A stretch of DNA of 58,907 nt, filler included. It is 5 parts of 5 records of this genome, joined end to end, with 100 filler letters (N's around TTAATTAATTAA, not from the genome) between each part and the next. Parts side by side here need not be neighbours in the genome. Positions count along the whole stretch, not along the records: positions 20,217 to 35,343 come from SRR20825019_1879; positions 35,444 to 47,017 come from SRR20825019_1885; 3 more parts are not named here. The stretch is one strand, 5' to 3'. The first letter of the stretch is position 1; each line of letters starts with the position of its first letter. The position numbers and the translations under genes were made by a program. Below the pieces are notes generated by a model that saw only the letters and a list, made by a program, of their open reading frames with translations, was not told the DNA's origin and did not search any database. This document shows, piece after piece, positions 20,217-52,339 of the stretch.

Positions 20217-20900
20217 CCCCCCCCCCCCCCCCCGCCGCCCCGGCCCGACTGAGGAAGAAAGACTCTCAAACAACCGGAGTGCCGGCGGGCCGCAGCGGCC
20301 ACCACTGCCGATCTGGCGGCCTTACTGCTTCAAACCCTGGTTGATTGTCGTTCCACCACCGTATCAGAGCGTCGTTGCCCCACCAGTCCCCATCCGATCC
20401 TCCGGGCTGAGCGCAATTGAATCCCCTCCAGCTCGGTGACTGAGCCACGCATAGCGGGGGACTCGGGCAGGCTGGCTGGCGGGGCTGCATTTCGCGTTGG
20501 CAAACCGTTTGACTCGGGACCGGACTGGGGGTTGGCCCGATAACCGAGAAAATGTGCCTGCTGGTCATCGCATTTCATTTTCAGTTTTTCGCAGTTTGAA
20601 ATTTGCACACTCGCCTCGCACGTGTTCAACAGTGCTTTTCACGTACAGTACGGCGGGTCGGGGTGCAGTGACCTTCGTCAGTGATGAGTTTGACCTGCAG
20701 CTGGTGAGTCGGACGAGGCCCCGGCCCGCCGGGGCCGGGGCCGCACTGACGGTGGCACCGTGGCCGGGCGCTGGGCCGCCCGGCCCCCGCTGCCGGGTCC
20801 CGGCAGGCTCCTGCTGGGACCGCCCGACGGAACTCCATCAGCCTTTGCCCCGTCCGTTCCCCATTGCCCGTCACGGTGGTGCCCGTTCAACCTCGGTGGG
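20217..20900. promoter_or_regulatory. GC-rich island A, upstream of LIN54 (starts with C17)
   Basis: GC-rich non-coding stretch 5' of the LIN54 ATG. Confidence 0.5.
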
Positions 20901-21110
20901 CCGGCGGCGACTGTTGCCGCCAATGTTTTCTTCTGCGTCCCTTTCCGCACTCCTTCTCTTGCCTATCATACGGACGCAAAAGCTCTGTTCGCTCTCCGCA
21001 AGAGCTATGCTCGCCATTCAAATATACCCACAGTCACTGTTTGGTTTGAAGTGGTTGTCTAGGAGTCTCTTGCTGTAGCGAGTGTAATGGAATAATTAAT
21101 TCCTCAAAGC

Positions 21111-22503
21111 ATGGCGAAAGATACAGTTGAGGAAACGGATAATGCGTCCCACTCTGACGACAAGTCGAGTGGGCCAAGCGCGAGCCCGTCCCAGTCCCCA
21201 TCACCAACCCCGTCTCCGACACCTACACCGTGTGTAGTACATTTGGATGGGTGTTTAATTTTTGACCACTTGAGCAGGAAGTCCAAAGGAGCGAAGAATG
21301 AAAAGGGAGGAAAGAAGTCCGCTAAGATGGCTGCCTTCGTACGAAATTTACAGCTGGACGTTCCAACAAAGAAAAGAAACTGCAACTGCAAAAATAGTCG
21401 TTGCCTGAAACTGTAACCGAAGTATTCACTATGGTGCCTTTCCACGTTGCTGACATGCTCATGACAGATATTGTGAATGCTTTGCTTCAGGGCAGTTCTG
21501 TGACGACTGCAACTGTGTTGCGTGCTGCAACAACCCCGAACACGAAAGTCTGCACAAAGAGGCGGTGGCCATTACACTTGAGAGGAACCCATCGGCATTT
21601 ATGCCGAAAATTGCTCCAAGTCCCGTGGACGGGGACGCCACCACGGTAAGGCAACAAATTTTGCATCCTAGATTTCTGTACCAACGCCTTCATTTGCCAG
21701 CCCATGACTGCACGTCATAACCGCGGCTGCAATTGCAAGAAATCAGGGTGCTTGAAGAAATATTGCGAGTGCTTCCAAGCTGGAATTTTGTGCTCATCCA
21801 ACTGTAAGTGTTGTCACTGCAAGAATTTTGAGGGGTCAGTCGAGCTTCGAAATGTTGGGGGTGCCTCGAACAAGAACCCATTGGGGTCACCCGTTAGCGC
21901 AAAAAGGCAGAAGACAGGCCCGATGACACCCCCGTTGCCTGTATACGGCAAATTGGCAAAAGATCAAGTAACTGCTGCCACCACAGAGAAAGTTACCATG
22001 TTCTCATTCCTTTTTCAGAAGCAGCGAGCGGACGGCACTCCGAGACGTATATTGAATGGTATCGACAACTATGATACTTCGGAGGGAAACAACACGGAAC
22101 CACGGGGTGTCGGCAGGTTCGCGCACATGTTGAGAATGCTGCCTTCACTAGCAACTAAATTGACACGACATTTCCGCTTAGGGCTCCTTTCAAGGGTACG
22201 CTAACCCCCAAAGTTATGGCGAGCGTATGCGAACTACTTCTATCTGCCGCCCGAGATATAGACTCCGAAAACAGGAATGAGAATGAAACGGACTCCGACA
22301 TCAAGCAGGTTCGTCTCTTGCGTCATAGTGGCTCCGCTCGGTGCATTGAAATTCGCAATGCAGGAAGAGGCTGTACTTGGCGAGTTTAATACCTGCGTCA
22401 AGCAAATTGTCAATGAAACCAAGAAACGCGGTAAGGCAGTCTTTGCATGATCTCTGCACTGCCTCACTTAAATTGGCCTGCCGCAGAGTGTGTCTTGACT
22501 TAA
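21111..22503 (+). CDS. LIN54: LIN54/tesmin/TSO1 double CXC (CRC) domain protein, multi-exon
   Basis: Spliced (introns 21230-21277, 21413-21467, 21646-21700 and later ones): [16 protein letters not shown]...RNPSAF.PK...[20 protein letters not shown], plus LIN54-type C-terminal helix [16 protein letters not shown]. Confidence 0.88.
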
Positions 22504-22547
22504 TGGAATCCCCAAAGGAGTAAATGTGACTTTGCAGTCCAACGGTG

Positions 22548-23048
22548 CTATCGCCCCCAGGCCCATTGAGGGCACTCGGCTCGGGGGACAAATATCACGG
22601 TGCCCTCTTGCTTGTTCTTCTTGGTGGCCGCTGGCCCAGACTGATCCTTGTACACGGGCAAGGTGAACCCAGAGACCGCATCCTTGGTGGATGTTATGGC
22701 CTCACCAGATTTCTTGTTTTTCTTTTTCTTCACCCCCATAACAGGGCCTAGCGTGTTTCCCACGTCACGGACGACTTGGCTGATTCGCTCTACATTTTCG
22801 ACGCAGACCTCGTCATCACTTGGATCGTCAAATCCTGTAGGTTTGCTAGGGTGGCTAGCGACTTCCTCTTTTGACGCATCAGCAATTGGCTGTTCAAAAA
22901 CCTTCAGCTTCTTTTTGCTTCTGCGAAAGAGAAGGACACCGTTGCCCGAGTCGTCACTATCTTCGCTCATATCGACAAAGAACTTGTCGAATTCGTGTTG
23001 CTGTGCATTATAGATATTTAGAGAACTCCTCTCGTCATGCTGGCCCAT
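22548..23048 (-). CDS. Hypothetical acidic/lysine-rich protein
   Basis: 166-aa ORF with its ATG next to island B and a KKKKNKK NLS-like run. Confidence 0.6.
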   Translation of the reverse strand: MGQHDERSSLNIYNAQQHEFDKFFVDMSEDSDDSGNGVLLFRRSKKKLKVFEQPIADASKEEVASHPSKPTGFDDPSDDEVCVENVERISQVVRDVGNTLGPVMGVKKKKNKKSGEAITSTKDAVSGFTLPVYKDQSGPAATKKNKQEGTVIFVPRAECPQWAWGR

Positions 23049-23129
23049 GGTTGGCGAGTTGCCGCGGTGGTGTACCAGTGAAGGGCAACTGTGGTGCGGT
23101 CAATGATCAGTAATCAGCCGCGACCCAAC

Positions 23130-23910
23130 GGCAGACGCCTGGCTGAGACCGGGCACCCCATGTGGCCCGGCCCCGAGCCGCGAGTCGTCCCGGGTCGGGG
23201 GCCGCGGGCGACTCGGAGGGACCAGCGTGGCTCACGGTCGGTCGCCGTCGGTCCCGTCCGCCGGGTTAGGTGGTGTGGAGGCCGGGGACCGGGGGCCAGG
23301 CCGGTCGCCTGAGCCGCCGCGCACCCGGACTGTCACGCGGGCCCGGATAGGGGTACGCGGTAGCGTGCGGCCGGCCGGGGCCCGGCCGGACGCAGTACCG
23401 TGGGGGGCCGGCCGGGCGGCCCCAGCGGCCGGCCCGGCGCCGCCATCCGATCGTCACCCGTCGGGCTCCGGGTCAGGGGGGGCGGGGCCGAGGCCCCGGC
23501 CCGCCGCGGCCGGGGCCAAACCCCGGGCGGGCCGTCAAGCCCGGCCGCCGGCGGTGGGCCGGCGCCGGCGGCGGCGCCGGGGCGGGCCGCCGGCCTCAGC
23601 GCCCCGGCGCGGGGCTCCCTCGCCCGGCCGGGCCTGGTCGGAAATCTCACACCCGATCACGATCATGTCAGGACGGACGGCCCAGCCGGGTCGGCGGCCT
23701 GCGCGGCCGCGCCGGGCCCGGCTCCCCCGGCCTCAGCGGGGCGCCGGCACGCCCCGGGCCGCCCCCGGGCCGGGCCCGGGTGCCGGGCCGCCGCGCGCGG
23801 GCCCCGCGCGGCCCACGCCCGCCGGGGCGGCCCGGATCCCGGTCCGTCCTGCCGGACGACGACGTGCCCGCGGCCCGACCCGGGGCACTTTGAGTGCCGG
23901 GCCTCAGGCC
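23130..23910. promoter_or_regulatory. GC-rich island B, between divergent genes
   Basis: nt 23761-23820 has 58/60 G+C; flanked by divergent ATGs at 23048 and 23968. Confidence 0.6.
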
Positions 23911-23967
23911 AGCAGTGAATTACTTTGAAGTAGTCATGTGCAGTATAGTCTCGTAAATGCATCTGCC

Positions 23968-25883
23968 ATGTTGTTTCCAAGTTGTCTTTTCCATGGTTTT
24001 GAGAGAACAAGCCGTGTGGCCGACCTGGATCGTCCATTTGTAACCCTATCGTATGCACAGACTTTGTGCGGGAGTGTTGCGCAGTCTCGAGAAGGTATGA
24101 GAGTTTGGAAATCCACAATCAAGTTATTTAATTTTTGGGCATCGTTTTGCAGCCGGGCAAATGAGCATAAGCTGCACAAAGTCTATGAGGTATACTCATA
24201 AGCTGCGGGCAGGAAACGAAGGGATCCTGGTTGGAGTGGGCACTGTCGAGAAAGATGATCCTTCCCTCACGGTTCGGTATGGTGTTGAGGGTGAGCTTAG
24301 GGCCAACGCAGATTGTTGGAAATAGAGAACTGATGTGCATGCTCTACTGCGTTTAGGCAGCAATCCTATCCCAGTGGTGGTCGACACAGGGCTCCGAATT
24401 CCATTATCATGCAAGTTGATATCCCATGATGATTGTGAACGGCCAATTGTTCTTGCTGTCGAGTCTACTGAAGTGGATTTCCTATCCAAGAAGAATGATT
24501 TGGAGCGGGCAGGGTATGTAACGGCGGTCTAGCTTTCATGCATTGGCTAATTTGCTGCTTCCAGGTGCCGTGTCTTGTTATGTCCATCGGTGACCGGAGT
24601 CAGGAAGGAAGTGAATCTTGTTGAGGCGTTAAGTATGTGCTTGCCATGGACGAATCTATGACATTGTTCTTATACTCGTTTGAATCACAGAATTGCTGAA
24701 AGCGGAATGTGGGATGTCAAGCCTCATGGTGGAAGGTGGCGCAAAGATCATCACGTCTTTTCTTGCACAGCATGATGAGCTTGTGGATGAAGTAGTTGTG
24801 ACCATCAGCCCGCAGTTTGTGAGTTTGATAATCGTTTCTGAGACGTGCATTAATGACTCGCCAGGTTGGGGGCTTGAACGTGATGACCAGACCCCTGGAA
24901 GGAAGCGATAATCGCCCATTCCCCAAGCTCGTCAAGTTTGAAACTGACCGACTCGACGAAGATATCATTGTGAAAGTACGGTGCCATGTTGTGGTTGATT
25001 CATTGATACTGAGGTTTTGTGGGTACAGGGAATATTTACTCTTGAAAAGACTCCCAATATAGTGTCAGGTGTCGTTGCTGATGTGCGGAGCCGTGTAGAG
25101 GACGCCGCCCAAAGGGCCGGGCCTGTTGTTGACAGCACGAAAGAGAAGGTGTCGGCAGGGTGAGATTATATGGTGGTGCACAGGTCAAAAGCTCGTCTAC
25201 TAATGTTCCACTTGTGGTAGCCTTGACCGTACTAAGAGCCGAGTGGCTCCGCTGGTAGAAAAGGCTAAGACCAATATCCAGACATCATGGAAGTACTTGA
25301 TTGACCGAGACAAGGTACGCATTGGATTAGGTGCTTATGTGTATGGCTGATGAGGGCCCTTACAGTCCGAGGGAGACAATTTCGACGGTGTAGGCCCGTC
25401 TGATGATGCCCGTTCCGCATCTGTCGGTTCAAACGAAGGTCAAGCCGCACAGAAAGGTCGCCGTGCAAAGTTCCGCGAAGGTTGGTGACGAAACAAGACA
25501 TCTTGCTCGCCTTGGCCTTATGTGCATGTAAAGGCCTGAAGGGGTTCGCTTCTAATTTCAGAGACAAAACAAAGGAGACGCTTGACAACGCGAGGGAAGG
25601 GATAATGGAAGCGAAGGGAAAGCTTAGCGAGAAACTGAAAAGAGACTCTGAGAATGCTGAACCTCTCATTCCGGGTAAGAATTTCATTCCTCAGATGATA
25701 ACACTCCAGCTTTGAGCCCGAAGAGATGTTTATTAACATTGGATCCTAGACCCCGACTCAGGGCCGTCCGGCAAGGTTTCCATGTCCGACCCAGACGGCG
25801 GGAATAATTTGGGAACGCCCGTCTCTGCACCGGTCGACCAGGCCCCATCAAGCCCAGCATCACACGCTCCTGCTATTCAATAA
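23968..25883 (+). CDS. RibD C-terminal/RIB7-type pyrimidine reductase with a long C-terminal extension, 10 introns
   Basis: Spliced RPFVTLSYAQTLCGSVA...THKLRA..EGILVGVGTVEKDDPSLTVR...LMVEGGAKIITSFL...LVDEVVVTISPQFVG; frame continues through GT-AG introns to TAA 25881-25883. Confidence 0.8.
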
Positions 25884-25891
25884 ACAAGGCA

Positions 25892-27199
25892 CTAAACAGT
25901 TGACTGATTAGATTCACGAGTGAGCGGCTGCTTTTCCTCATCCGTTGCATCGCCGCCTTGGTTTGGAGTGCACTGCTGGAACTTCGTTTCCTGTACTGTC
26001 TTCCTGCCCCTCAGGCATCTCAGCGCTATGAAGTCTGCAACCAGAGCAGCCACTCCAAGCAGAGCCATTCCTGATGCCAAGTTGAGGATGAATGGAACCA
26101 CCTCGAACTTTCGCCCAACACCTGTCGTCAGAAACGCCATCCGCACACCCCACACCTTGGCTTGGTCCCTATACTCCACGAGAGCATTGTTCACGGAGAC
26201 TCGGTACTTGTTGTAATACCTAAAGTTGAAGCCCTTGGACGGCGAGTTTGGGTCATCGAGCCGGAATGCCATCACTTTAGGTTGACAATCCTCCCGACGC
26301 TCAGCAAAGTCCAAGTCGCAATCCCACTTAAATGTCACAGCTATGAATGCACCTTTTTTCATGATCGTTTCAAAGCTTTCTACACCGGCCATCTTCAGGA
26401 GGTCCGTGACATGGAACAAATTCTCTCCCATAATGGGCTTGGCGGACTTAACATTGTCGATAGTATAGCCATACTAGAGAAAACGAGCCATGTGAGTTTT
26501 CAAACGAGTTCTGCAAGCCAGCCATTCTCACCTTCGCAAAACGGACTGAGTTCTTCATGAAGATGGTGAAAGTATCGATGCCTTTCAGTTCTGTGCCTTC
26601 GGCATCGTCCACTTCGATAGGGCACCATGCTTGAACCATGCACATCTGGCTGGGCTGGTCACACACTCCAGTGGTGACTCCATTCCTGGTAAGTTTTCCT
26701 GCGGCACACTTTCCGTCCTCATCACACGACTCTGACTTTTTGTCCTCTCCCTTACAGACTCCCCGCTATACATTCGACAGAATAAGCAACTTCCTCAAAC
26801 ACTAGTGCAAGATCTCACAAATCCTCACCTGCTGTGTATCGGTATGTAGCTGGTTGGTCGTGATGAACAACCCATTCATTTCCCCCTGAGGAAATACAGT
26901 ATCCAAAGCATCGAAAATCTTGTAGGCAGTCTTTCCATCACTATCAGTGTATTCTTCGTAGCTGGAGCCATGCAGCTTGATATTAGATACACCGACGGCG
27001 CGTTCCTGCCCCTGGTACCCATGCCTCAACCAAAGTACAAACACTGCAATGTAGCAAACTGCAAAAGATAGTGAGTTCACTTTCACGTACAACGGAACTG
27101 ATACGTACTGATGACGAACTGCACCAGCCGGTGGCACAGTCCCAGGGGAACGGATCGAACTGTAACTTTCTTCTGGGTGTTGTAGTGAAAGAGTGACAT
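25892..27199 (-). CDS. P2X purinergic receptor (ATP-gated channel family), 3 introns
   Basis: N-terminal YxTxK (HYNTQK), TM1, Cys-rich head with WCPIE, FTIFMKNSVRF, W.CDLD, GFNFR, R..AK.WGVR, TM2 LASGMALLGVA...DF. Confidence 0.92.
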
Positions 27200-27344
27200 A
27201 TCAGTTCCTATGAGCTCCCGCTTTCAAACGTAGTGGCGCTACCTGTATTTACCCGATGCTTGTGTTAGACAGCAAACTCCGGAAGCGGCGAATTCTTGTT
27301 CACCACAAATCGTGCACCCGCCTGGACACATGCGGCGTAATACG

Positions 27345-27960
27345 GGTCGGATGGGGGAACCGGGGCACAGGGCAGCGACCGTCCCTCGCGGCGGCTGCTG
27401 AAAACCTGGCTGGCGGACTCAGGACTGGGGCCGACTCCTCTCACGAGCGGCCGCGCCGGCGTCCGGGCCCGCGCTCGCAACGGCCCGAGTAGGGCCGGCC
27501 GGCATCGCAGAGGCTGCCTCCGGCGGCCGAGGAGGGCCGGGGCCGGGTTGCGGGGCCACCCGATCCGGCCCCGCGCGGACCGCCCGGCCGGGCGAGCCCC
27601 GGGGCCGGGGCCTCGGGAGAGGTCCGGACGGACCGTCCAGTCCGTGCTCGGCCGCGGCGGGGCCGCCGCGCGGGCCCACCCCATCATGTTGGGCCCCGGC
27701 GCGTAGGGCCTTATCCGTGGATTTTCTGCTTCCGACCCGGGATGACTCAAATCTCGCGCAATCTCGCGGACGGCCCACGTGGGCGGCGGGCGACCACTCC
27801 GTCGTCGCCCGCCGGCACTGACCGCCGCCAGTCTTCAGTGAGGCGCTCCTCCGTTGGCCCACCGCGCCGCGCCGCCCGCCCCGGGGTCTGGCTACTGGGG
27901 CACCCGGCGCCCGCGGCCAGCCTTGGCCATTGGGTTCCGTTCCCACTGTTCGGTCCCCTG
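27345..27960. promoter_or_regulatory. GC-rich island C, between divergent P2X and MORN genes
   Basis: Very GC-rich non-coding stretch between ATGs at 27199 (-) and 28077 (+). Confidence 0.6.
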
Positions 27961-28076
27961 TGGCAGAAACTCGTCAGTGGTGGTACTGAATCCGGCTGTC
28001 TGCAGTGTGAGTTGCAGGCAATGAAAGCGAAACTCTATAAAATCTCCCAGGACATCATGCACCAACCAAATACATC

Positions 28077-30403
28077 ATGGCTTCATCAGAAGAAAAGAAA
28101 CCTTCCAGTGTGAAGTTTTCTGAGAATAACACAGTTAATAGTATAGTTGATGCTGATGGTACATTCAAACTTCCATCCGCTTCGGTACTACTGTCTAAAA
28201 GCGCCTCCGCGGACTCTCCCGGAATTCTCAAGGCCGTAGGAACCAGCAAGCTGAGACAAGCGGTATTATCTTCGGACCTTGGCAGGAAAAATTCCTTTTC
28301 CACAATAGCTAAAATTGCCAGCAAGAAGAAGAAGCTTGAAATGGAGTTAAATGAAGAAGATAAGCAGACCAAGTTTAAGCCAACAAAAATAGCGGATATG
28401 TTGCAGTCTACCGCGAATCAACACAAAGTAGACGCAAGGAAAGCGATTATTCAGAAGTTTACAAAGCGCAAAATAGAGACACAGGAGGAGAAGTCCCTTC
28501 GATCTAAGTGTCTAGAAATCACTCATGGAATGACTGTGGTCCGGAACATGACAAAACAGGTTTCAGTGATAAGAGAAGGTACCGGAATTCTCACTGCGTC
28601 TTTGGCGGCCAATAACCTGTACAACGACTCAAGTGAAAACAACTTGATGTCAATGAAGCTGGCTCTGCACGAAACACGAGAATTAGATACGACCCGGTCA
28701 CTCCACAACAAAGGTGTGCGGAGGATAGGTCTATTTGGGCTTACCACCCCACAGCACCCTAGTTCGAGGGACAAGATGCCAGAAGGAGTTACAGCTAAGT
28801 CTTGGGTTCCTGGAAAGCCTGACTGGGATTTGGAAACTGTAGCAGCTATGTTTGAACGTGATCAAAGAACACTGATCGAAAAGGAGAAAGAAAGATGCGA
28901 CACACTCGGTGTGGAGTATCCGAGGAAGCTCTTGCGTGCAATTGAAGAGATGGAAAGTAGGGAGCGCAGGCGGCAGCTGCACGAGGAGAAAATGAAGAAA
29001 CGGAATAAGAAATGGGTATCTCCTCAGGATACATTCAACGAAAAAAACGCATCTAAGAAGGTAGAAGACCTCAAGCGAACTCGTGTTTTGGGTGGGGATG
29101 CCCCTCCTCCAAGTAAGGGAAATAGCGTACTGCTGGCAGGAATTGCTAGTGTAGGAACTGCTCGCTGGTATCGCCAAGACACCGAGGGACGCCCATCATC
29201 CGCTCCATCGCGATCAGCGTGGAGCCCATTTCGGTCGGCATCCCCCGCCATGATGGTGAAGAGCCCAAAGCTGAGGCGCAAAGCATCCGGCGGAGGGAGA
29301 CCCCCCTCACCATCAAAGAGTCAGAATACGTCAGGGCTATCCGGAGGCTCCCAACTATCTCATTCAGCTTCGGGATTCATGACACCAGACCTATCACAGT
29401 ACAAGGATGAGCATGTCAGCTTGGTGGATGGTGAGCCTCATGAGGGGCCACAGGTGCTTCCTGTGGAGCCTGATGACATCCGTCCTCGCAGCAGAAACAT
29501 CGAAAAGAATGTAGATTATCCGGAGGGGCAGTACAAAGGGAGAGTCAACACATACTTGTGCCCAGAGGGTCAAGGCACCTTGACTCTTCACGAGGGCGCG
29601 GTATACAAAGGCACATTTGTACATGGTGCCATATTTGGATGCGGGAGAATTGTTTATGACAGCGTGGTATATGAGGGACAGGTGGTGCGTGGGAGGCCAG
29701 ATGGGCTTGGGTACATGTACAATATCAAGACAAAGGAAAGGTATAATGGCGAGTTCAAGGCCGGTAAGAAGGACGGGTTGGGCGTTTGGGATGTTCCGGG
29801 CCGGTTCATCTACGAAGGGGAGTTTAAGGATGACCAGCGAAGTGGATATGGGACGCTCGACTATGAGAACGGCGATCGTTACGAAGGTATGTTCAAGGCA
29901 GACTACCCAGACATCCTCGGCGTACACCACAGATTTGAGGGCGACCGATTTGAAGGAGATATCAAGAAAGGACTATGGCAAGGGCAAGGAGTCCTGTGGA
30001 AGAGCAATGGGTCTCGGGTGGACGGCATGTTCAGCAAAGATGTCCCCCATGGTTATGCTATTGCATATAACAATAACAATCGAGTCGTGCTGAGAGGGAA
30101 GTTCGATATGGGCAGGTTCATAGAGACCCGCAGTGTCCCAGAACTGTCAGAAGGCCGCGGGCGGGCGGACTTGGCCTGTAAGCGCGCACGCCAAGCTCGT
30201 AGATCGTCACGACTCGCAGTTCACATGGCAGTTAATTCACGATGGTAAGTACTAAGAGAGTTACTGGATGGACCGTCACTCATCCCTCCAATAGCTACCG
30301 GCTCTCCCAAGACCCACTAGACGCAGACAAGGTCGGCGAAATGTCTCTGTCGGCAAAACGTGCAGCGGCACAAAAGGCCAGACGTAGGAAAGGACTTTCA
30401 TAA
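28077..30403 (+). CDS. MORN-repeat protein with a long low-complexity N-terminus
   Basis: Tandem YEGEFK.D.R.GYG-type MORN repeats at ~29520-30120; final exon after the intron starting at 30245. Confidence 0.85.
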
Positions 30404-30450
30404 TCTATCGACCATAATCTATCAAAGCAACTTCGTTATTCTAACGCGGG

Positions 30451-34473: not shown

Positions 34474-34703
34474 ATCGAGTAGCCCCAGGGTGTTTGGTCC
34501 TGCCGCTACCTCTCGGAACTAGACCCGCTGCGTCCACTTCCCCTACGCTAAGCAATACGTGAAAGGTCAAACCAATATCAATCGTTTCTTGCTAAACGCC
34601 CAAACCGGGATCATCGGAGCGATCATAGAGTCGCACGCATGTTCATTGTCCCGTAATACCGAGGAAGTAAAACATGAAGACGTATATGTAACGCGAATAA
34701 GGT

Positions 34704-35343
34704 TTACTCAAAGTTCCCTCTAAGCAATCTGGAGTCTGTTCGTGCAGCATCACCAACCTCCAGATCAAGCGGACCACTGTAATCTTCATCTACCGGGTAT
34801 TCTTCTAAATCTAGAGGCCCACTCAGCTCTTCAAGTTCCGCGGGCTGAGCGGCAGCGAAAGGATCGACCACAGCCATGGAGCTGGGGTCATCCGGGTCTT
34901 GAGATGTGGGAGCTCCGTCCTTCCCTGTAAACTTGCCAGCCTTAGCAGCTGCAAGAGTCTGCTCTGAAATCCCATCTAAAGAACCATCCACCACATCATC
35001 ATCTATACCCTGCACGACAGACGGAGCAGCTTTTGCTGCAGATCCGGGCTTGCCCCCCTTACCACCCGGATTTTTCGGCGGTTTTCCGGTTGTAGTTTTG
35101 GTCTCATTACCTGCAACTGCGGGTGCAGTCCCATTACCCGCCGGTGCAGTCCCATTACCCGCCGGTGCAGCCCCGTTACCCGCTGCCGCGGTGGCATTGG
35201 CACCAGCAAATTCAGACGAAGGCGGTGCAGATGGAGAGGTTTCATTTCCAGCAACAGGGCCTTTGCTCTCAACTTTGTCACCTCCATCCGCAGGAGCGGT
35301 GTCATTACCGGCGCCACTGCCAGGAGGAGCCGGTCCACTGCCA
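34704..35343 (-). CDS. Low-complexity Ala/Gly/Pro-rich probable glycoprotein, 5' truncated
   Basis: Frame open from the contig end; many NxT sequons (NDT, NET, NAT, NGT x2); ends RLLRGNFE*. Confidence 0.65.
35122..35184. repeat. 21-bp coding tandem repeat x3 (AGNGTAP)
   Basis: ggtgcagtcccattacccgcc at 35122 and 35143, variant at 35164. Confidence 0.9.
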
Positions 35344-35443
35344 NNNNNNNNNNNNNNNNNNNNNNNNNNNNNNNNNNNNNNNNNNNNTTAATTAATTAAN
35401 NNNNNNNNNNNNNNNNNNNNNNNNNNNNNNNNNNNNNNNNNNN
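35344..35443. other. Assembly spacer
   Basis: N run with TTAATTAATTAA. Confidence 0.99.
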
Positions 35444-36260
35444 GGGGGGGGGGGGGGGGGGGGGGCACTTCCCGGTCCTCGCACGGGCGACTCCCCGAAA
35501 GGCGGCCGGCCGGCGGGCCGCGAGGGACCTGACGCGGGCCGGCGACCGGACGCCGACGACCGGCGGCTGCGGGCGACGCGGGCCCCGCCGGGGCCGCGCG
35601 CCCCCGCCCCCGGCGGAGCCGGCGGGTGGGCCGCCCGGCCGACACTCACTTGGTGGCACCCATCGGCCGCGCAAGCGCGCCGGCTGGCTTGCCGGCGCTC
35701 GCCTCGCGGCCGGACCTGGTGGCCGACCGGCCCGGCCCCGCGCTGAGGCGGGACCGTCCGAGGCTGACCGGACCGGCCGGCCGCTCCTCATGGCAGGACG
35801 GCCCCCGTGACGCCACGGACTCATGAGGACCCGGCCTCGTAGGCCCGGCGGTCCGGGACCCACCACCCCCCGGTGAGTGAGTGCCGTGGCCGGCCGGCGG
35901 CGCCGGGACGCCACGGGGCTGGCCTTGCCGTCAGTGGGACTGGAACGCAGTGGGCCGGGGTCCAGTGAGTCCGGGGCCAAGCCCGGCCCGCCGCGCTCTC
36001 GACCCGCCTCGCGGCGCGGCCGCCCGGCGCCCGGCCGGGGACCGTCGTCCGGGAGGCCGGCGACGCCCGGCCGGGGACGCGCGGCCCGGCGGCCATATGG
36101 GCCGGCCGGGGGTCAGCTCACCGTCCAGGGCACGCCGCCCGGGGAGCCGGAGCGGGGGGGGCGGGACAACCCGCCGGCCAGGCCGAGCGGCCGCTGACAG
36201 TTGACGGCGAGTGCACCGGGGGCTGGTCAGTGGAAGCCCGCGGCCCGCCATGCTGCGCTC
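35444..36260. promoter_or_regulatory. GC-rich island E, upstream of the BLOC1S3-like gene (starts with G22)
   Basis: Very GC-rich; ends about 70 nt before ATG 36329. Confidence 0.6.
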
Positions 36261-36328
36261 ACTATGCACAGATTCATATATACCAGCGCCAAGGACGGAG
36301 GTAGTGTGAAACAGATCCTAACAAAAAT

Positions 36329-37519
36329 ATGAGCGAAGGTGACCTATACACAGCAGGACTCCCGGGACAAGTGGTTGCGGGTGAAGAGGTGGAGGAAACA
36401 GATGACGAGGATGACTTTCTTAGTCCGGGGACCCCTTCTGCCCCTTCCATTGCACCCAATGTGCCGAAACCTCTCGTGACTCCTAGTAGCAATACCTGCC
36501 CGGTACAAAGTTTGGCAGCTGGCTCGGATACGGTGCGCCCGCCGTCGACATCGTCCTCGTTTTCGAATGGTACGTGACTCCATTTACTCACCACATGTAG
36601 TGTAAGGACTAATAACGGTCAGCAGTATCACACAACGATGCCGCCTCATATTCCATGGGTGAGACCAAGAAGTTGTGCACAAGGCCCCATAATGGACTAA
36701 TACCTTGACAGTGTCCCGGGGGGAGAGAGAGCCGGGCGAGGGCCGAGAGGAAGATACGGAGGAAGAAGACGTTGTGTTGGAACTTGACGCAGCTGTGCTG
36801 GCGGGCTCCCTTGGTGATGGAGCGCAGGCCCATGCCCGGGGGCGGACGCCGCCACTTGAGCTACCGATCGATGGTATTCGCTTTAACAGAGTCAATGTTA
36901 TCGTCGCTTGCTAATCCCTCTTTGTTTGTTGCTGAAGACTCTGTGGATTTCCCCTCTGTTTCTGACGATGAAAGTGCGGGGCATATTCTGTCGTTTTCGG
37001 TTGCAAATATTAATGGCAAGATGAAAGGAGGGCTGGAGGACTTGTTGAAGACGACGAAGAAGGTGTTTGAGGACCTGAACAACCCTCAGGGTCCCCCAAT
37101 TCATGTATGTGTGCCTAGTCTTCTTGGAGTTTGTCTAAAGTTCCCCTTCAGGCTGTCCCTGGAGAAGCCTGGAACAGGATTCCCGCGGGTGTCCGTGCAC
37201 CCCATTGGACCAAACAGGGCGAGCTGGCATTGCATAATAGCGAGTTGGGTATGGCATTACAGAATAAGCTAGCGAAGCCATTTGTGACTGCGCGGAAGGA
37301 TGTGGTGACTAGTATCAATAGCGCCCAGAGGACTATCAATTCTGTCCAGGTCAGCTTCATACCGTGGCCTTTATACATCTGGATTGCCTGACACCTCATA
37401 CACAGACGACTTCGCAGCATTTGCGTGTCTTGACCGACAACCTGGCTATGCTCAATCAAACAATTCTCTCGTCGCTTACATCTAGCCACCCCAAAAGCCC
37501 CGAGCCTAGCAAGGATTAG
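36329..37519 (+). CDS. BLOC-1 subunit 3-like protein, 5 introns
   Basis: N-terminal VVAGEEVEETDDE (cf. VxGEAxETDxE) and spliced C-terminal coiled coil ELALHNSELG...PFVTARKDV...SVQTTSQHLRVLTDNLAMLNQ. Confidence 0.6.
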
Positions 37520-37775
37520 GCATCGCAAAGGGAGTTTGCTTGGACCCAGCGGTCTAATGCAGATTAATGTCTGTCCTTGATGTCCAGGCACATGTGACTT
37601 CAGGACACCGCACCAGCGTGGTACTCAAATGCGTGCAGCAACCCCGCTCTGGGAATAGTTACCATCCATGTTCCCAACGGTAGCCTTGGCATTAGGAATA
37701 AACATGGGACCTCTCCTGGGGAATATGGGCACATAAACCCGACCAGATCTCGACTGGTCTAAGGTTATGGACGGA

Positions 37776-39002
37776 TTACTTTTCGGAAATCCCTCGCAGC
37801 CACACCATCTTCCTGTGACGCCGCTCATCCTCCTCAACTGGTGTGCATATGTCCTTCACATGCTGTATACATTGGTCAGACTTGCGCAAATACAAGACAA
37901 TTGATCCTCATTCACCTTAGATGTATGCGCACACCTGAATGTTAGAGACACGCGGACAGGTTGCCTGGGCACTGATGTTTCGAAGTCACATGTAGCAAGA
38001 TTCACGCAGTCTGCCGGAATCTCCTCGTCTAGAGATGGGCAGTCGTCGATGCGATGGGTGTAGGTCTCATAAAGATTCTCCGAGAACACCACTAAACTGC
38101 GGCGTGCTAGAATTATTGACAAAGAGGGGTCCGCGCTACCCTCGTCGGGCTTGAACCTCATAATGGCTAATGAACATGAATGAGAACCAAACATGTGGCT
38201 CTGCGGGAGGACAAAGCACACATACCATCGGACTTCAGGCTCAATACCGCAGCCATTGGCTTGTATAGGGGGCCGTCCTTATGGGCCTAGGCAGATGCAT
38301 TAGTTAATAAGACGATGAACACGTGTGAGTGCACCAAACCGCACTAGAACGCTAGTGCCCACTCACGTCAATGCCTTTCCCGTCTCGGTACTCGTTCAGG
38401 AGCACCTGATTCGGGGTATCTTCAAATATCCCCACATCCTTCAACCTCTCACCTATGTAGCAATTCAGTGGCGTAGAAAGAAAACTCGTACGAAAACTCA
38501 CCAAGACGAGAACAAAACTGAGGCAAGTCCTCCACAAACATGCCTTGGGCATGTGGAATCTAAATTGCATGGTCATCAAAGCGTGAACACGACACAGTGA
38601 AGATTCAGTTACCCCTCCCCAGTTCTGCAGTTTTCGTTTGGTCAAAGAGACAAATGGGTGCTTGCTAATCTTCAAGAACAACTGTGAGTGCCAACAAATA
38701 CGCCAGCTCGCAGAGGGCTTCTACTCTACTACCTCGTCCAGAAGACTTTGTTCATCCTCTTTCGAAACGAAGTCTGGAATGTAATAAGCCCGTCTCGAAT
38801 CTTCTAGGTGGCTCTTCTCAAGTAGGTTAAAAGGAAGTTCTCTGCTAGTTTTGAGAAGAAATGTTTTCTCTGCATACAAGGAAATCAACGATATTGGCAT
38901 ACTGTAGGGACAACTAAAAACAAATCAAAAACTACCTTTCGATTTGGCGGCTCGAGACTTCAGCGCCTCCGCCATCATTTTGTCCATATCAATTGATGTC
39001 AT
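37776..39002 (-). CDS. ALKBH6: AlkB homolog 6 (2OG-Fe(II) dioxygenase), multi-exon
   Basis: Spliced YYIPDFVSKEDE...RKLQNWGGIPH..GM..E.LP...PNQVLLNEY..G.GI...HKDGPLYKP...RSLVVF...YTH.I...RVSLTFR. Confidence 0.88.
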
Positions 39003-39144
39003 AACTTTGGGGAGAAGTAAGTTTCTCTCTTTTTGAGAAATATGGACTGGCGGAGATAGCAAATAGTGTAAAGAGGCGCACACTCCCAAACTCCTGAAAT
39101 GTGCAGAAAGAATAGTGTGTGTTCTATATTTAGTAGTCACGCTC

Positions 39145-39560
39145 AACTGAGCTGGGCCCGCCCGGCCCGGCGCCCCGGGCCCTCGCCGCGCCGGCGCGGG
39201 CAGGGCGGGTGTCGCCGGGCCGTGGCCGGGACGAAGGCGCCTTGGGTCGCCGGCCCCGCGCTACTTGGGGGGCGGGGCGCCGCTAGCCGATGACGACTGG
39301 GTCCCGGTCCGGGCACTGCGACGGGTCGGGTGGCCGGCTGAGCGCGAGCCGAGCGCCCCGGCCCGGCCGCCACTCCTCACTGACTGGGCAGGTCGCTGGC
39401 CGGGCAGTCGCCGGCCTGGGGAGCTGCGTTGGCGGCGTGTCACGCCGCCCGCCGGGACCCGCCGCCGGGCGGCCCGACGAGTGAATGATCCGACAGGCAT
39501 TGCCCGGCCTCACGGTTACTTCGCGGACTCGAGCCGAGCCGGGCCGGGGTCGGCCGCATG
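39145..39560. promoter_or_regulatory. GC-rich island F, upstream of ALKBH6
   Basis: One-sided island 5' of ATG 39002 (-). Confidence 0.55.
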
Positions 39561-39747
39561 CTGTGCGCCTACTACGGCCATTGTGCTACCAATAACCACG
39601 CCCGAGTCCACTGAAAAATGATGTTTGCGGGGCCGTCTTTAGTGAAAGATTCTTCTGCTCTACCGGCACTGCTGGGAACAACAAACAGTTGTGACGCTAC
39701 CTTGTAGGGTATAGCAAGCCGCATAAATGTCAACAGTGGTTTTCTTT

Positions 39748-40224
39748 TCAGCGTCTCTTCTTTGTATCCTTGGGCTTGCTGTCCTCGGGGCCATCATAGT
39801 GGTCTCTGCAAACAAGCAAAAGGAGAGCACAAACAACGTGCACACCCAAAAACTGTTGTGATCCCTTCAGCGTGAAGTCGATCGGCACTGCGCATACGGC
39901 CAACGCTTGGAAAAGGTGAAAATAGAAAAGATCGATGTGAGCCGCCCTGCGGTATCCCCTGTCGACGTTGTGTGACGTGAGAGCAAAGAAAACCACAACA
40001 AGGAGCTTTGCAATCATTGCACAGATTAGGAATATCATAGCCCGTTGCGTTGGGCTGTTGACGTCCAGATCTGGATATATAGCTTTCACCATATGATCAC
40101 TTAGTCGACCTTGCAACGTCATCCACGAAATATCCCTAAAGTAGAAGCTCAGCACGTACGTCGGCAGCATTGCCGCGTATAGAGCTTCGTGGATAACAAA
40201 AGCAAACTGCAAAGAGCTGACCAT
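39748..40224 (-). CDS. Hypothetical small multi-pass membrane protein with a C-terminal KKxx-like signal
   Basis: About 4 hydrophobic segments; ends KPKDTKKRR*. Confidence 0.7.
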   Translation of the reverse strand: MVSSLQFAFVIHEALYAAMLPTYVLSFYFRDISWMTLQGRLSDHMVKAIYPDLDVNSPTQRAMIFLICAMIAKLLVVVFFALTSHNVDRGYRRAAHIDLFYFHLFQALAVCAVPIDFTLKGSQQFLGVHVVCALLLLVCRDHYDGPEDSKPKDTKKRR

Positions 40225-40294
40225 ATTCTAACGTGTGACCGTCACCGCTGCTCATCTCTATGGACCGTTCTACATAAATACAAACGGTGCTTAA

Positions 40295-40550
40295 TTGCCG
40301 GGGTCACTGTGCGCCGACTCCGGCTGGGTGAGCGCCCCTGGTCGCCCCCGACCGGCACTGCGCGGGGCTGCTCATGCCCGCGCCGGGCCGACCGGGGCCG
40401 GGCAGCCGGAAGCGCACCCGGAACCGGAACGCGACCTGCCCGGCCGGCCGGCCGCGATGGCTCACGGCACGCCCCCGCCGGCCCGCGGTAACGTAGTGGG
40501 CCGCCGGGCCCGGCGGCGAACCGGACGGCCTGCCCCGGGTGGGACTCTGT
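40295..40550. promoter_or_regulatory. GC-rich island G, upstream of the membrane protein gene
   Basis: Begins about 70 nt 5' of ATG 40224 (-). Confidence 0.55.
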
Positions 40551-40684
40551 AGCCTCCCAATTGGGATTCTAATTTAATTTTAAATTTCTGGAAATGGTTT
40601 ACGTGGTGGGGCCGACTGGCCTAAGATTATGTGTCAGATAATAATACAACTTCTGACACGCAGTCTGCGGGTCGCGCCAAGGTA

Positions 40685-40717
40685 CTTTCGGGCCTTTCGG
40701 GCCTTTCGGGCCTTTCG
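40685..40717. repeat. 9-bp tandem repeat (CTTTCGGGC) x3.7
   Basis: Read directly from the sequence. Confidence 0.9.
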
Positions 40718-41191
40718 ACGGTGTTAGTGGGCCTTGGTGAGGAGATCTGCGAATCGGGTATGGTGGGGCTGGAGCGTGTCGCCTGCGGGAGATTTGCGGC
40801 TGGAATTGGAACATCAACACGGAATTGTGCATGAGAGGTATGGCAGCTTTGCACTCTGCTCTCCGACGGGAAGGTTGGTCGACAGGAAAGAGCCGCACAC
40901 GACACTGAGGAATCTAAGTGCGGGAGGGTTTTACCGAGAATCTGAATTGAATATGCAACTTGGTTCGCTGCAAAACTCTGAAGTCGAAGGGAAGTATGCT
41001 AGAAGAAGATATGTTGCACATGTGGGCGACATTTCGCGCTACAAAAGGACATATATACGAAATGCACTCTCCCATTAAAGGAAGGAATGAAGGAACGGTT
41101 TATTGCCACTCAGGATTGGCCATGAAAAATATTCAAGAACCAGGTCTGGAGAACCGTCGCACATCAGCAGACGGCTGTTCAGGCAGGGGGC

Positions 41192-44100
41192 TTAAGTTAG
41201 CGAACCCGATGCGCAGAGGGATATGAAATCTTCAATGACGCCGTGGAATCTCTTCTTGTCGCCCAGCTTCTCCACCAGCATGTTCACAATATTGTGTTTG
41301 CTCTCTTCACCGAGGTGCACAACGGGAAATGACGGATCGGATAGTGCCTTAAATATCCACTGAGAGGCTTCTTGGGTCCCTACCACAAGCATTTCGTACA
41401 TGACGCTGCAGATAGACTGGAGCAATACTCTATTTGAGGAGTCCGTCAGTGCAAACACCAGGGAAGACATCAACTGTTCTCCGAACATGTTCCAGAAACG
41501 GCCTACGTAAACTTTGCTTTCTGGTCGGTCGGACCGTTGGGTAAGGTTGAAGAGATGCTCGATGTACTTAAGACCATTCTTCGCCATATCCTTACTGTCT
41601 GCTTTGAGGCATGCCATTGCGAGGCGTGCCCCCGGGAATCCCAAACTGTTAACCTTTTCCGACAGTAGCACTGCGCATGAGAACATCGAAATGTTGCGAA
41701 GAATAAGGAAAAACCCGTTCACCACGTCCACTTGCATGCCAAGGTCTCTTGATGCAGCAGCTTCCACAGCAGGCCACAAAGCCTCGACAACGCTAGCAAA
41801 GTGATCCGTAGTTCCGTCCATCGCGCCGAAAGTTTCCACAGCAGCAGAAATTGCTTCTAAGAAGCAAGCATGAGGAACCTTTTGGAAGTTGACCACCATT
41901 GCAGTTAAGATTCCTGGCAATAGTGGAGCCATTTCAATTTTCACCGCGGCCATCGATGCAGTCCAAAAATCACAAACGCACCCTGAGATTTCTACATCAC
42001 ATCCATGGAAGGAAAGGCACGTGTCTAGCAAGGGCTGCATTAGCGTGTGTAGTGCCATTGCAGGGTGATTTCCGGCACGTGACGGGACCGCCTCAATAAA
42101 CCTCACAGCGCTCGTTAGATTGCGGACCTGTGTCATCACGAGTTTGCGGACAGCTATCAATGCATCACCCTGGGAGGGGCACGGAGCACCCAGCAGCTTC
42201 TGCAATTCGGCAACAAAAGGCGAAGCAAGTTGTTCCAAAGCCTTTCCAATGCGCTCATGCGGCATGAAGGCCACTACTCGGGCCAATCCCTCGGTCACCA
42301 AGACCTGGGAATCAGAAGGCATTGATCGAAACATGGGTGCGCATGCACCCACAAGAGACTCAAACGTGTGTGGATTAGTTAACCCAGAGCGGCAGTCAAT
42401 CAGAATGCGGTTCAGAGCCTTCGCAGCCTCGGTAATCACTTGACTGTTCGAGAAGCATGCCAATGTGTATGATATTGTCGGCTCCATGAGATTTAAGTTC
42501 TTGGACAGTAATTTCGAGTATGCCCCAATCATCATCACCATCTGGACTCTCACCGCACTGTGGCTTGGGAAATTCTCGCTATTGACATTTGAAAATACGG
42601 AGAGTAGAAGCCTATCTGCTTCTTGTTGGTCCTGCAATGCCTCTGGGTTCGAGAGATTCACATTCTTCCTTCCTGCCAATGCCTCCGTTGCAACAGATTT
42701 CATCACGAATATGACAACCTCGATCTCCTGCCAGTTTCCTTGTGAGCTCTGCAGAGCCTCGCAAAGAAGCCTCAACAAATTGGACCGCAAAACTCGGTAG
42801 CATACTATAAATGCATCCTTTGCATGACTCCGGAGATTCTCGAAATCTTCGTAGTCGATATCCGATCTCTCCCATCCCGTAAACTCCCCCGGATACATCA
42901 CTTGCCTCATTAGAGTCCTCAGTATCTGAATGTAGAGATCATCAAGCAGGACGGGATGACGGTTCTGAGGAGGTATTTCCTGCAAAGTCTTCCAAAATGG
43001 AATGCAGGTTTCTACGACTCCAATATCAGGACTGCTCATTGACTCTACTAGCAGCTCTATCAACCCAAGGTAGTCGCCAGTGCCCGCGATCATGGCGCAA
43101 AAGGACTGTCCCAAGCACCGCGCCACCCGTACAATCGCAAGGCACTTGAGTGATTCATCCTCACTGCAGGCATCTGTATAAAGCTTCCGCAAGCCTATCA
43201 CCCTCATGATGGCGTGCCGAAGCGCGTCCTCTAGCTGGCGACCAGAATCAGCGGCTACCAACTTTGAATTTTCAATTGTCTCGATCAAAGTGTCCGCGCA
43301 TTGCTCGCAACATTCTTCCAGATTAAATCCTTCGAAACACATATTGAACAATGGTGTCGAGTAAAAATCATCCAGGTTCAATCCGGTCTTTGCCCACTGA
43401 CTGAGACATTGGAAAATTTTTTTGAGCAACAATGGGCTTACATAAGTCTGACCGAGTGGTGTTGTTGTCACCAACGGGTTCTGGGGAGAGGGAGGGAGTA
43501 TCCCGCCAGATCCTCCTGATGCGTGTACTAGCCCAGGAATCATCTGTGGCGGACTTCTTCCGAGTGGAGAAGGCTGTCCGCCATGAAAAGGCGATCCAGG
43601 ATAAGGAGACCCCGGAGCGTTGCCCGCGAAGGGTGATGCCGGAGACGATATTGGATATGGAGACGCAGGATGGGTTGGATAAGGCGACCCGGGGGGAAGA
43701 TTCGCAAATGGCGATAATGTCTCACCCGGGCCTGGGGAGTTAGTCGGTGTTGGGGTCACAGCATTCTTGGCTATGGCGGTTGTAGGCTGCGAAACTTTGT
43801 GAAGTAGGGACATCACTTCAGGTAGATGTAGCGACAGATTTTTCATCATTCCCTGTTTCGTGTCCGCGCTTGCACTAAGCTTCTCCACTTGCTCAGGAAC
43901 ACTTGCCAGCATGTCGCAAATTATAGTCGCGGAACAGCCACTGAGAAGCTGCCACGATTCTGCGAGGAGACTCTGAACTTCGTGACCAGTAGACATAGCG
44001 GCCAACGTTAGCGCTAGCCTCGGTAAGACCAGATGCTCAGCTGCCTGCCCTAAGCACGGCATGATTGCCACGACTTGTTTGCGAATGGACTGTTTTTGTT

Positions 44101-44446
44101 CCCAACCAAGTGAATGCCATTCCTGGCTCACTTTCTGATAAAGTGTATTTGCAGCGAAAAACTGAACGCTGTTGTTGTTGGAACGGAGGAGTTCGACAGA
44201 CAGGTTCCATGCACTATGGCCACACATCAGTCAACCGCAGAACACTGCACACATGCACAACAAGCCAAATACCATGCAGTGCCAGCAAATGCCCTCAAGT
44301 ACTCGTCAGCTCTTGCTTGATTACTGCTTGGGGTGCTAGAAGGCCTCAAGATTAACGTCCCAGAGGATGAGCAAGATCTTTTCCACTTACCCGTAGAGGG
44401 CCAACACTGCGCTCTCTATCTCAGCAATGGTAGGTTCAGAAGTCAT
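41192..44446 (-). CDS. Importin-13/transportin-SR family karyopherin
   Basis: Two 5' introns give MTSEPTIAEIESAVLALY...ADEYL...AWNLSVELL...VQFFAANTLYQKV..EW; HEAT repeats with FW..LQE, DFENLR, WQEIE, IGAYS; 3' end might include a further exon. Confidence 0.82.
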
Positions 44447-44779
44447 GGCTAGCACGTTTGCTACGCTTGATAACTATCTTTTCAACAACATAACCTGTCC
44501 CCTCAACACTGCATTCACTAAGTATTCCGAATGGGTAATTGCAGTGACTCAGCATATTTACACTGAGTAGCTTTGAGTGCCACTTTCTTCCTAGTAAGCT
44601 GGAAGGCTGCGACACGCTTCCTTGGTACTCACGAAAGAGAGAAGTGCTCCAGGAAGACGGCAAGCTAAGACCTGACTCCCTTTGGTCGAGCTGAACATGG
44701 GTCCACTCCCATGCCGAAATCTCTGACCGACTCGAGTGATCATCGACCTGTCATTGGCGAATCAGCGCCTCACGGACCT

Positions 44780-45190
44780 GGCTCGCGGTACCTGCCCGGG
44801 GCCGCCCCTCAGCCACACTTGGGATTGACAATGCCGATAGTCGAGGAGGGGCAGGTAACACGCCCTTAGTTGACAAAGTTCACTATAAAGAGATTATTTC
44901 GTAATGCTCGGTGCCCGACCCGTGATGCCAAACCCGGACGCCGGGCAGTCGCGGAGGGCAACGAGTGCCAGGCGGCGGGTCGGGCCGGGACTCCGCCGCC
45001 GGCCCGCCAGCGTACGGGAGGACTCATCACACCGGCGGCCGCTTTGCCAGCGGCCCGCGGCCGTCAGCCCGGCCGGATGGGAGTGTGCCGCATGGCGGCC
45101 TCGGTCGGCCGATCGGGCGCCGGCTCCGCGGCTGCTCGGCGACTCCCATGGACCCGAGAGAATGGTTGGCCGCCGCCGGGGGGGCGGCCT
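44780..45190. promoter_or_regulatory. GC-rich island H, between divergent importin and dyskerin genes
   Basis: GC-rich stretch between ATGs at 44446 (-) and 45477 (+). Confidence 0.55.
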
Positions 45191-52335: not shown

Positions 52336-52339
52336 TCCG

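Follow-up and report, generated by a model that had tools for sequence, protein, structure and literature searches.

What are the eight blocks of extreme guanine-plus-cytosine (GC) content that interrupt the eukaryotic part of the 58,907-nt window analysed here, and why does every visible gene start adjoin one of them? The window is a concatenation of five contigs from at least three organisms with four identical synthetic joints (N44-TTAATTAATTAA-N44) between them, so that features spanning a joint are not physically linked and statements on 'this genome' need care; a first-pass annotation, whose coordinate range crosses one joint (35344–35443), had described the blocks as non-coding, CpG-island-like promoter regions of a protist. 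All results on the blocks rest on 26.7 kb, the two contigs of one eukaryote co-assembled with marine bacteria, and the annotation's idea that a distinct promoter or chromatin architecture organises the genome reaches beyond that sample. The blocks are genuine and occur as single copies; they are non-coding intergenic DNA from an unplaced marine eukaryote and lie at gene 5′ ends, and we give an even chance to the reading that they constitute a CpG-island-like platform that precedes a core promoter or separates two of them. Such a pattern is striking and seems to have no earlier description in protists. That this DNA is eukaryotic, as proposed, is borne out by Pfam domains and spliced introns on the two contigs concerned:

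20217–35343 (15,127 nt): contig 2, eukaryotic, GC 0.55, with Pfam matches to tesmin-CXC, P2X and MORN
35444–47017 (11,574 nt): contig 3, eukaryotic, with importin-13/TNPO3 and dyskerin domains (Pfam) and 13 RNA-supported GT..AG introns

All eight claimed islands are present at their claimed places. On the annotation's coordinates their GC is, from island 1 to island 8, 0.66, 0.84, 0.77, 0.74, 0.82, 0.79, 0.80 and 0.70, the remainder of both eukaryotic contigs having a GC of 0.50, and the two 60-mers quoted as extremes are exact (58/60 GC at 23761–23820 and 22/60 at 28321–28380). An unbiased block caller (100-nt windows with GC of at least 0.65) returned the same eight blocks, the first one split in two, together with five small bumps of 100–200 nt and GC at most 0.66, one of which (25747–25846) sits at a convergent junction. 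Block cores measure 232–1122 nt, a five-fold spread in length, at a GC of 0.72–0.84, and their edges are sharp, with a GC step of 0.25–0.57 between neighbouring 60-nt windows at 14 of the 16 edges. Blocks 1 and 5 are truncated by contig ends, leaving six internal blocks. With genes lettered A to N and their strands in parentheses, the islands are as follows:

20217–20946 (core 20637–20922): island 1, GC 0.72, upstream of gene A (+), cut by the contig end
23077–23936 (core 23130–23913): island 2, GC 0.84, between divergent genes B (−) and C (+), ATG-to-ATG 888 nt
27297–27996 (core 27343–27919): island 3, GC 0.78, between divergent genes D (−, P2X receptor) and E (+, MORN), ATG-to-ATG 878 nt
30957–32256 (core 31087–32208): island 4, GC 0.75, between divergent genes F (−) and G (+), ATG-to-ATG 1404 nt
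35444–36273 (core 35466–36263): island 5, GC 0.81, upstream of gene I (+), cut by the contig end
39104–39613 (core 39149–39562): island 6, GC 0.80, at a tandem junction, upstream of gene J (−) and downstream of the 3′ end of gene K (−)
40274–40573 (core 40309–40540): island 7, GC 0.82, upstream of gene K (−)
44714–45373 (core 44913–45220): island 8, GC 0.75, between divergent genes M (−, importin-13-like) and N (+, dyskerin), ATG-to-ATG 779 nt

Island 4 has an internal GC dip to 0.65 near 31500–31800, the listed RNA-contig pieces of gene K begin beside island 6 at 39625 and 39628, and on the far side of island 7 about 500 nt at ~50% GC precede the importin 3′ end.

Gene orientation was taken from Pfam matches, RNA-supported introns and a splice-aware gene finder checked against those introns, and gives 13 genes at ~50% GC in the 26.7 kb, or ~2 kb per gene. 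Contigs of two public runs from one sample, X1 and X2, match contig 3 at 99% identity or more and skip its 13 GT..AG introns (twelve of 47–80 nt and one of 211 nt, with GC of 0.35–0.49); we took them as complementary DNA (cDNA) because their joined forms are intron-less. The genes flanking blocks are confirmed at 99% identity or more by 15/15 pieces of run X1. The depth of X1 and X2 contigs is zero in the bins 35444–36215, 40462–40847 and 44708–45093 and low over island 6, which we did not count as evidence. Trained on three long exons and the 13 introns and applied to each inter-block interval, the gene finder retrieved six of the seven known introns of gene J exactly and separated the strands in validation by 66 vs 15 and 40 vs 8. 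The resulting order on contig 2 is block 1, A (+), B (−), block 2, C (+), D (−), block 3, E (+), F (−), block 4, G (+) and H (−), with gene H running off the contig, and on contig 3 it is block 5, I (+), J (−), block 6, K (−), block 7, M (−), block 8 and N (+). The strand of genes B, C, D, E, F, G, I, J and N is scored decisively, that of A (26 vs 15) and K (14 vs 8) with a moderate margin; an unspliced RNA contig also covers K.

On this map the position rule of the first-pass annotation holds throughout. An island upstream of every visible gene start was claimed, and 12/12 starts adjoin a block, the first ATG lying 23–215 nt from a sharp block edge (the ATG of gene B is 82 nt from the start of the core). 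The count of four islands between divergent pairs was correct (islands 2, 3, 4 and 8); of the other four blocks, two occupy tandem junctions and two reach contig ends, and none of the five convergent junctions carries one, again as claimed. Across the 11 internal junctions, a block is therefore present in 6/6 that contain a 5′ end vs 0/5 that are convergent (one-sided Fisher p = 0.002). A bidirectional promoter is recognised where two genes point away from each other and their starts are separated by under about 1 kb; the divergent blocks fit this description, with ATG-to-ATG distances below 1 kb in three of the four pairs (888, 878 and 779 nt; the fourth is 1404 nt), and the other four blocks are unidirectional or cut by contig ends.

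Where do the core promoters themselves lie? Contigs covering the dyskerin cDNA pass from 45458–45461 (+) into adapter-like letters, which places the 5′ end ~19 nt before the ATG at 45477, where the protein's N-terminus naturally starts. The gene K cDNA has its 5′ end at 40243 (−), beyond which both X1 and X2 continue into that adapter in reverse complement, and with an ATG at 40224 its leader is likewise ~19 nt long. Both 5′ ends come from assembled contigs, not raw reads, and the letters beyond them are presumably a template-switch oligo and a Nextera adapter. The sequence TATTTATGT stands ~30 nt upstream of both mapped ends, and TATTTAT has only two copies in the 26.7 kb (53 kb counting both strands), both correctly oriented before a mapped end. 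The TATA-like elements on the block flanks are:

45426–45432 (+): TATTTAT, TATA-like, ~30 nt upstream of the dyskerin cDNA 5′ end
40274–40280 (−): TATTTAT, TATA-like, ~30 nt upstream of the gene K cDNA 5′ end
28036–28042 (+): TATAAAA, 40 nt outside the edge of island 3 and 41 nt ahead of the MORN ATG (28077)

Position 40243 lies 31 nt past the called edge of island 7 and 45458 lies 85 nt past island 8, and all 12 first ATGs are outside block cores. The order at each mapped flank is thus block edge, AT-rich TATA-like element, cDNA 5′ end ~30 nt further on, a leader of ~19 nt and the ATG. Since TATA-like elements and cDNA 5′ ends lie outside the edges, each block is a spacer that either precedes one core promoter or separates two, and the proposal that the islands are promoters stands as to their place at gene 5′ ends but not as to the mapped 5′ ends and TATA-like elements, which fall beside them.

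The blocks are neither translated nor copies of one another. Windows of 300 nt centred on them score negatively in all six frames under a codon model of this organism (−0.5 to −11, exons scoring +10 to +22), and their codon-phase GC difference is at most 0.10, against 0.10–0.18 in eukaryotic exons and 0.16–0.33 in bacterial open reading frames (ORFs), so that with negative codon scores and no phase periodicity we rejected translated GC-rich exons, one of two identities that the first-pass annotation had named as fatal to its reading. Long stop-free frames do cross the blocks, for example 273 codons at 23107–23928, because of base composition alone. The other such identity, a single transposon or dispersed repeat family, was rejected as well: no alignable family was found, and matches between blocks are only of low complexity, 20–45 nt long and 61–76% identical, save for one 32-mer shared by islands 1 and 2 at 30/32 positions (94%; the best 32-nt window in 20 Markov simulations reached 24–27). 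Bacterial inserts were set aside since block GC (0.72–0.84) exceeds that of the co-assembled bacteria (0.60–0.66) and ORF-type phase periodicity is lacking. RNA genes were discarded too, as scans of the eukaryotic contigs gave no Rfam match at gathering score and no tRNA. The suggestion that the blocks form G-quadruplexes (G4) or R-loops found no support, with six canonical G4 motifs confined to 3/8 blocks (homopolymer contig ends excluded) and a GC skew close to zero (−0.11 to +0.10 in block halves). Within the blocks, A/T positions show no 10–11-nt helical periodicity.

We compared four compartments, trimming the 13 introns by 6 nt at each end, for GC and for the observed/expected ratio (o/e) of CpG and of TpG/CpA:

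Block cores: GC 0.79, CpG o/e 1.03 (bootstrap 1.00–1.05), TpG/CpA o/e 1.01
Long exons: GC 0.51, CpG o/e 0.80, TpG/CpA o/e 1.20
Trimmed introns (13): GC 0.44, CpG o/e 0.68 (bootstrap 0.50–0.88), TpG/CpA o/e 1.41
Convergent spacers: GC about 0.50, CpG o/e 0.93, TpG/CpA o/e 1.08

By 300-nt windows, CpG o/e is 1.00 in 14 island windows vs 0.80 ± 0.14 in 61 non-island windows (Mann-Whitney p = 4e-6), and on the annotation's coordinates it ranges per block from 0.88 to 1.06. A CpG island is defined by sequence as at least 200 nt with GC of at least 0.5 and CpG o/e of at least 0.6, a description that fits 8/8 blocks; the term CpG-island-like is therefore apt for their sequence and for the direction in which CpG differs, and less so for their setting, where bulk CpG depletion is mild and the mapped 5′ ends fall outside. 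The blocks also share words: GCCGGG (93 occurrences vs 23.6 expected under an order-1 Markov model) and GGCCGG (98 vs 23.9) are found in 8/8 blocks and CGGCCG (102 vs 32.3 under the same model) in 7/8, and short degenerate arrays of GC-only units are present in every block. A separate word that is not GC-rich, CACTGA(C), has 10 copies in 5/8 block cores vs 1.0 expected (core sites include 20744, 27816, 31821, 35931, 36227 and 39378) and 16 further copies outside the cores; it could be a factor-binding site.

How might such DNA work? On the reading to which we give an even chance, the blocks would act like vertebrate CpG islands, as long, CpG-dense platforms that escape cytosine methylation. 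The shared GC-only vocabulary (GGCCGG, GCCGGG, CGGCCG) would recruit factors or set a chromatin state, the chromatin or factors of the blocks would keep the flanking promoters active and insulated, and transcribed DNA would slowly lose CpG while the blocks would not. As far as composition can tell, the contrast between a CpG o/e of 1.0 inside and 0.8 outside fits unmethylated blocks and methylated transcribed DNA; the position of the blocks, their non-coding nature, the layout of their flanks, the words they share and the CpG difference are observed, and the unmethylated state, factor binding and any function are inferred. A more ambitious version, in which a deep-branching, unsampled marine eukaryote independently evolved a vertebrate-style promoter system within a compact genome, with nearly all promoters beside unmethylated blocks of ~80% GC built of GGCCGG-type words, a dedicated factor that reads them and methylated gene bodies, is one that we regard as rather doubtful.

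Several observations weigh against the platform reading. CpG depletion outside the blocks is mild (o/e 0.80), where vertebrate bulk DNA has roughly 0.2–0.3, and methylation may therefore be weak or absent; moreover, CpG retention alone cannot raise GC to 75–84%. Both mapped cDNA 5′ ends (2/2, on assembled contigs and with a presumed adapter) lie outside the blocks, unlike in vertebrate CpG islands. The stretch 40574–41085 beside island 7 is intergenic according to the gene finder (scores 9 and 3) and yet has ~50% GC, hence not all intergenic DNA is GC-rich. The classical Sp1-type GC box GGGCGG is not enriched in the blocks (31 vs 24.4), and no methyltransferase or CXXC-type gene is in view in the 26.7 kb. 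The sample is that same 26.7 kb, two contigs of a mixed assembly, with continuity across block edges coming from the assembly alone.

The other explanations divide into those that deny the blocks are what they seem and those that grant this but see no function in them. That they are assembly artefacts, chimeric joins or products of sequencing chemistry in a mixed, low-coverage assembly is very improbable in our judgement. Such an origin would suit a window that mixes at least three organisms, block continuity that depends on assembly alone and two blocks that reach poly-C or poly-G contig ends: contig 2 opens with 25 C (20217–20241) and contig 3 with 22 G (35444–35465), probably sequencing or assembly artefacts in themselves, and since both contigs break inside a GC block, poor coverage of such blocks is suggested. 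It does not account for six internal blocks with correctly oriented genes on either side, for GC above that of the co-assembled bacteria (0.60–0.66) without codon periodicity, for flanking genes confirmed at 99% or more by 15/15 X1 pieces, or for a vocabulary and position rule common to all eight, unlike random chimeras. Scarcely credible is the alternative that the blocks are one transposon or repeat family or translated GC-rich exons; the 273-codon stop-free frame at 23107–23928 and the 30/32 match of islands 1 and 2 speak for it, but negative codon scores, the lack of phase periodicity and of any family beyond 45 nt or 76% identity (save the one 32-mer), and a dyskerin N-terminus that begins at an ATG 19 nt past a mapped 5′ end all contradict it.

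Among explanations without function, GC-biased gene conversion may have produced the blocks as a side effect of meiotic recombination whose hotspots are anchored at promoters, their GC having no regulatory role of its own, which we think unlikely. Gene-conversion tracts are expected to give less sharp edges than those observed, where GC drops by 0.25–0.57 within 60 nt, and GC at third codon positions (GC3) shows no increase toward the blocks. In successive stretches of 100 codons from the 5′ end it is 0.43, 0.51, 0.48, 0.50, 0.52, 0.59 and 0.59 in MORN, runs without trend from 0.53 to 0.63 in importin and is 0.58, 0.55, 0.57 and 0.73 in dyskerin; this lack of a rise (MORN goes from 0.43 to 0.59, importin and dyskerin are flat toward the blocks) argues against a simple gene-conversion gradient. 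In its favour, extreme GC, a CpG o/e of ~1 and degenerate GC-only arrays fit a long AT-to-GC fixation bias, and the blocks sit where organisms that lack PRDM9 place their hotspots. The blocks might instead be functionless filler, untranscribed DNA drifting to very high GC as microsatellite-like GC-only words expand by slippage while transcribed DNA is held near 50% by transcription-linked mutation and selection, an account that also strikes us as improbable. It would explain the promoter link, 5′ spacers being almost the only untranscribed DNA in a compact genome, and it agrees with the short degenerate GC-only arrays in every block, with block lengths that vary five-fold (232–1122 nt) and with blocks that cannot be aligned to one another. 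One X1 contig (36711–38166) traverses the plus-strand introns of gene I and then the minus-strand introns of gene J, from which it follows that the 3′ ends of this convergent pair overlap; at this one RNA-documented convergent junction no untranscribed DNA is left, again as filler would have it, and the sense strands of introns are skewed (T 285 vs A 140, G 184 vs C 150). Against this, the same few words are enriched 3–4-fold in seven or all eight blocks, the intergenic stretch 40574–41085 is not GC-rich, T-rich introns reflect the ordinary polypyrimidine signal, and with GC3 at 0.53 and introns at a GC of 0.43 there is no sign of a general mutation pressure toward GC.

Set beside known systems, the blocks as CpG-island-like platforms resemble vertebrate CpG islands in their length (0.2–1.3 kb), in GC far above the bulk, in a CpG o/e of ~1, in their place at gene 5′ ends, often head-to-head, and in the CpG depletion with TpG/CpA excess of the surrounding transcribed DNA. 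They differ in a GC of 72–84%, where vertebrate islands have roughly 60–70%, in the mild depletion of the bulk (0.80), in mapped 5′ ends and TATA-like elements outside the block, and in a host that is an unplaced protist with a compact genome, 47–80-nt introns and ~2 kb per gene. Compact protist, algal and fungal genomes likewise have alternating head-to-head and tail-to-tail pairs, spacers below 1.5 kb, short leaders and TATA-like elements at their bidirectional promoters, but their spacers are AT-rich or near average in GC, whereas those here are extreme. The GC rises at promoter hotspots of yeasts, birds, dogs and Arabidopsis are modest and graded, unlike blocks that exceed their surroundings by 0.25–0.35 in GC, have edges sharp within 60 nt and send no GC3 gradient into genes. 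What is shared with those hotspots is GC enrichment tied to promoters, especially divergent ones; according to one preprint, yeast recombination hotspots are GC-rich, nucleosome-free and at promoters, and dogs, birds and Arabidopsis are cited likewise (10.1101/119768).

Is the arrangement seen elsewhere? We compared the dyskerin locus with the best 80 of 494 metagenomic relatives, of which 47 had at least 400 nt upstream and 33 were dropped for short flanks. The upstream GC excess at the dyskerin gene of the window, 0.26, was equalled in 0/47 other loci, none of which had a non-coding upstream GC block; the four nearest (0.13–0.21) have strong codon-phase periodicity and therefore represent GC3-rich neighbouring genes in GC-rich genomes. 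No account of such blocks in a protist was found in the literature searched, most subscription journals being outside its scope, and precedent may exist. The closest parallel there is the connection of divergent promoters with GC-richness and recombination hotspots in yeasts (10.1101/119768). CpG-island promoters are usually viewed as a vertebrate, at most animal, solution tied to heavy genome methylation. A protist with a sharply bounded block of 72–84% GC beside every visible promoter would be a natural experiment that could help to distinguish how islands arise (by evading methylation decay, through biased gene conversion or under selection for a chromatin platform) from the roles they play.

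Which organism carries these blocks? The phylogenetic placement by dyskerin and importin that had been envisaged leaves it unplaced, while putting its dyskerin outside the fungal, oomycete and streptophyte clades sampled. Importin matches reach 24–29% identity over long alignments, in searches of 5.8 billion proteins or 1.84 billion representatives; the best among the 1.84 billion representatives is 26% identical (E = 5e-61), one 186-residue fragment reaches 39%, and the named top matches are scattered over an ochrophyte, green algae and Mesostigma. Relatives of the importin were not found in metagenome contigs or in prokaryote-genome contigs, and exact look-ups of two of the eukaryotic proteins gave no match. 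The dyskerin is 80–85% identical to oomycete, chytrid and plant sequences alike, and in a tree of 40 rows (the query and 39 of 120 listed matches, 81 being left out) it falls outside well-supported oomycete, fungal and streptophyte clades and beside a transcriptome sequence and a marine clade, with weak support (83/74). The best public match of the P2X protein, from a transcriptome, is 43% identical, and animal P2X4-like proteins are 29–37% identical. A marine setting is indicated by the co-assembled bacteria, which are marine. With its divergent importin and a dyskerin outside the clades sampled, the organism is of possible phylogenetic interest.

The proteins identified on contigs 2 and 3 are an importin-13/transportin-3-like protein, a dyskerin, a MORN-repeat protein, a P2X receptor and a tesmin-type CXC protein, and the genes delimited in most detail are these:

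25892–27199 (−): gene D, P2X-type ATP-gated channel, with short introns
36329–37391 (+): gene I, convergent with gene J
37371–39002 (−): gene J, with seven RNA-supported short introns
41192–44698 (−): gene M, importin-13/transportin-3-like, a 1011-codon exon and at least two short 5′ exons, introns 44214–44272 and 44336–44390
45477–47017 (+): gene N, dyskerin/Cbf5, with a 211-nt intron at 46581–46791, running off the contig end

Judged by eye, gene J is predicted to encode a protein similar to a 2-oxoglutarate/Fe(II) (AlkB-like) oxygenase, and gene C (23936–25715, +) one similar to a RibD-type reductase. The truncated gene H contains, in its Ala/Gly/Pro/Asn-rich coding region, a 21-nt tandem repeat of three copies with 95% matches (35122–35183). 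The splice-aware gene finder detected no convincing gene in 40541–41190, and this gene-less stretch beside island 7 holds a perfect 9-nt repeat, CTTTCGGGC, in 3.7 copies (40685–40717).

The rest of the window is bacterial in origin or appearance. Over 20 kb, contig 1 (1–20116, GC 0.60) matches a complete bacterial genome of 4.3 Mb, G001, at 99% identity, and the contig's proteins are exact Nitratireductor matches; contig 3, compared directly, was not found in that genome. Contig 4 (47118–53697, GC 0.64) encodes proteins identical to those of Pseudosulfitobacter pseudonitzschiae and has only fragmentary matches to G001, at 66–87% identity, and contig 5 (53798–58907, GC 0.66) is bacterial in look and not G001. 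The joints between the five were located as follows:

20117–20216, 35344–35443, 47018–47117 and 53698–53797: synthetic joints, recognised by their N runs and TTAATTAATTAA linker

Within the eukaryotic part, the public-run contigs depart from the window at ten single bases (37501–43964) in the ~7.5 kb that they cover, and these differences may be alleles or mark a slightly different strain.

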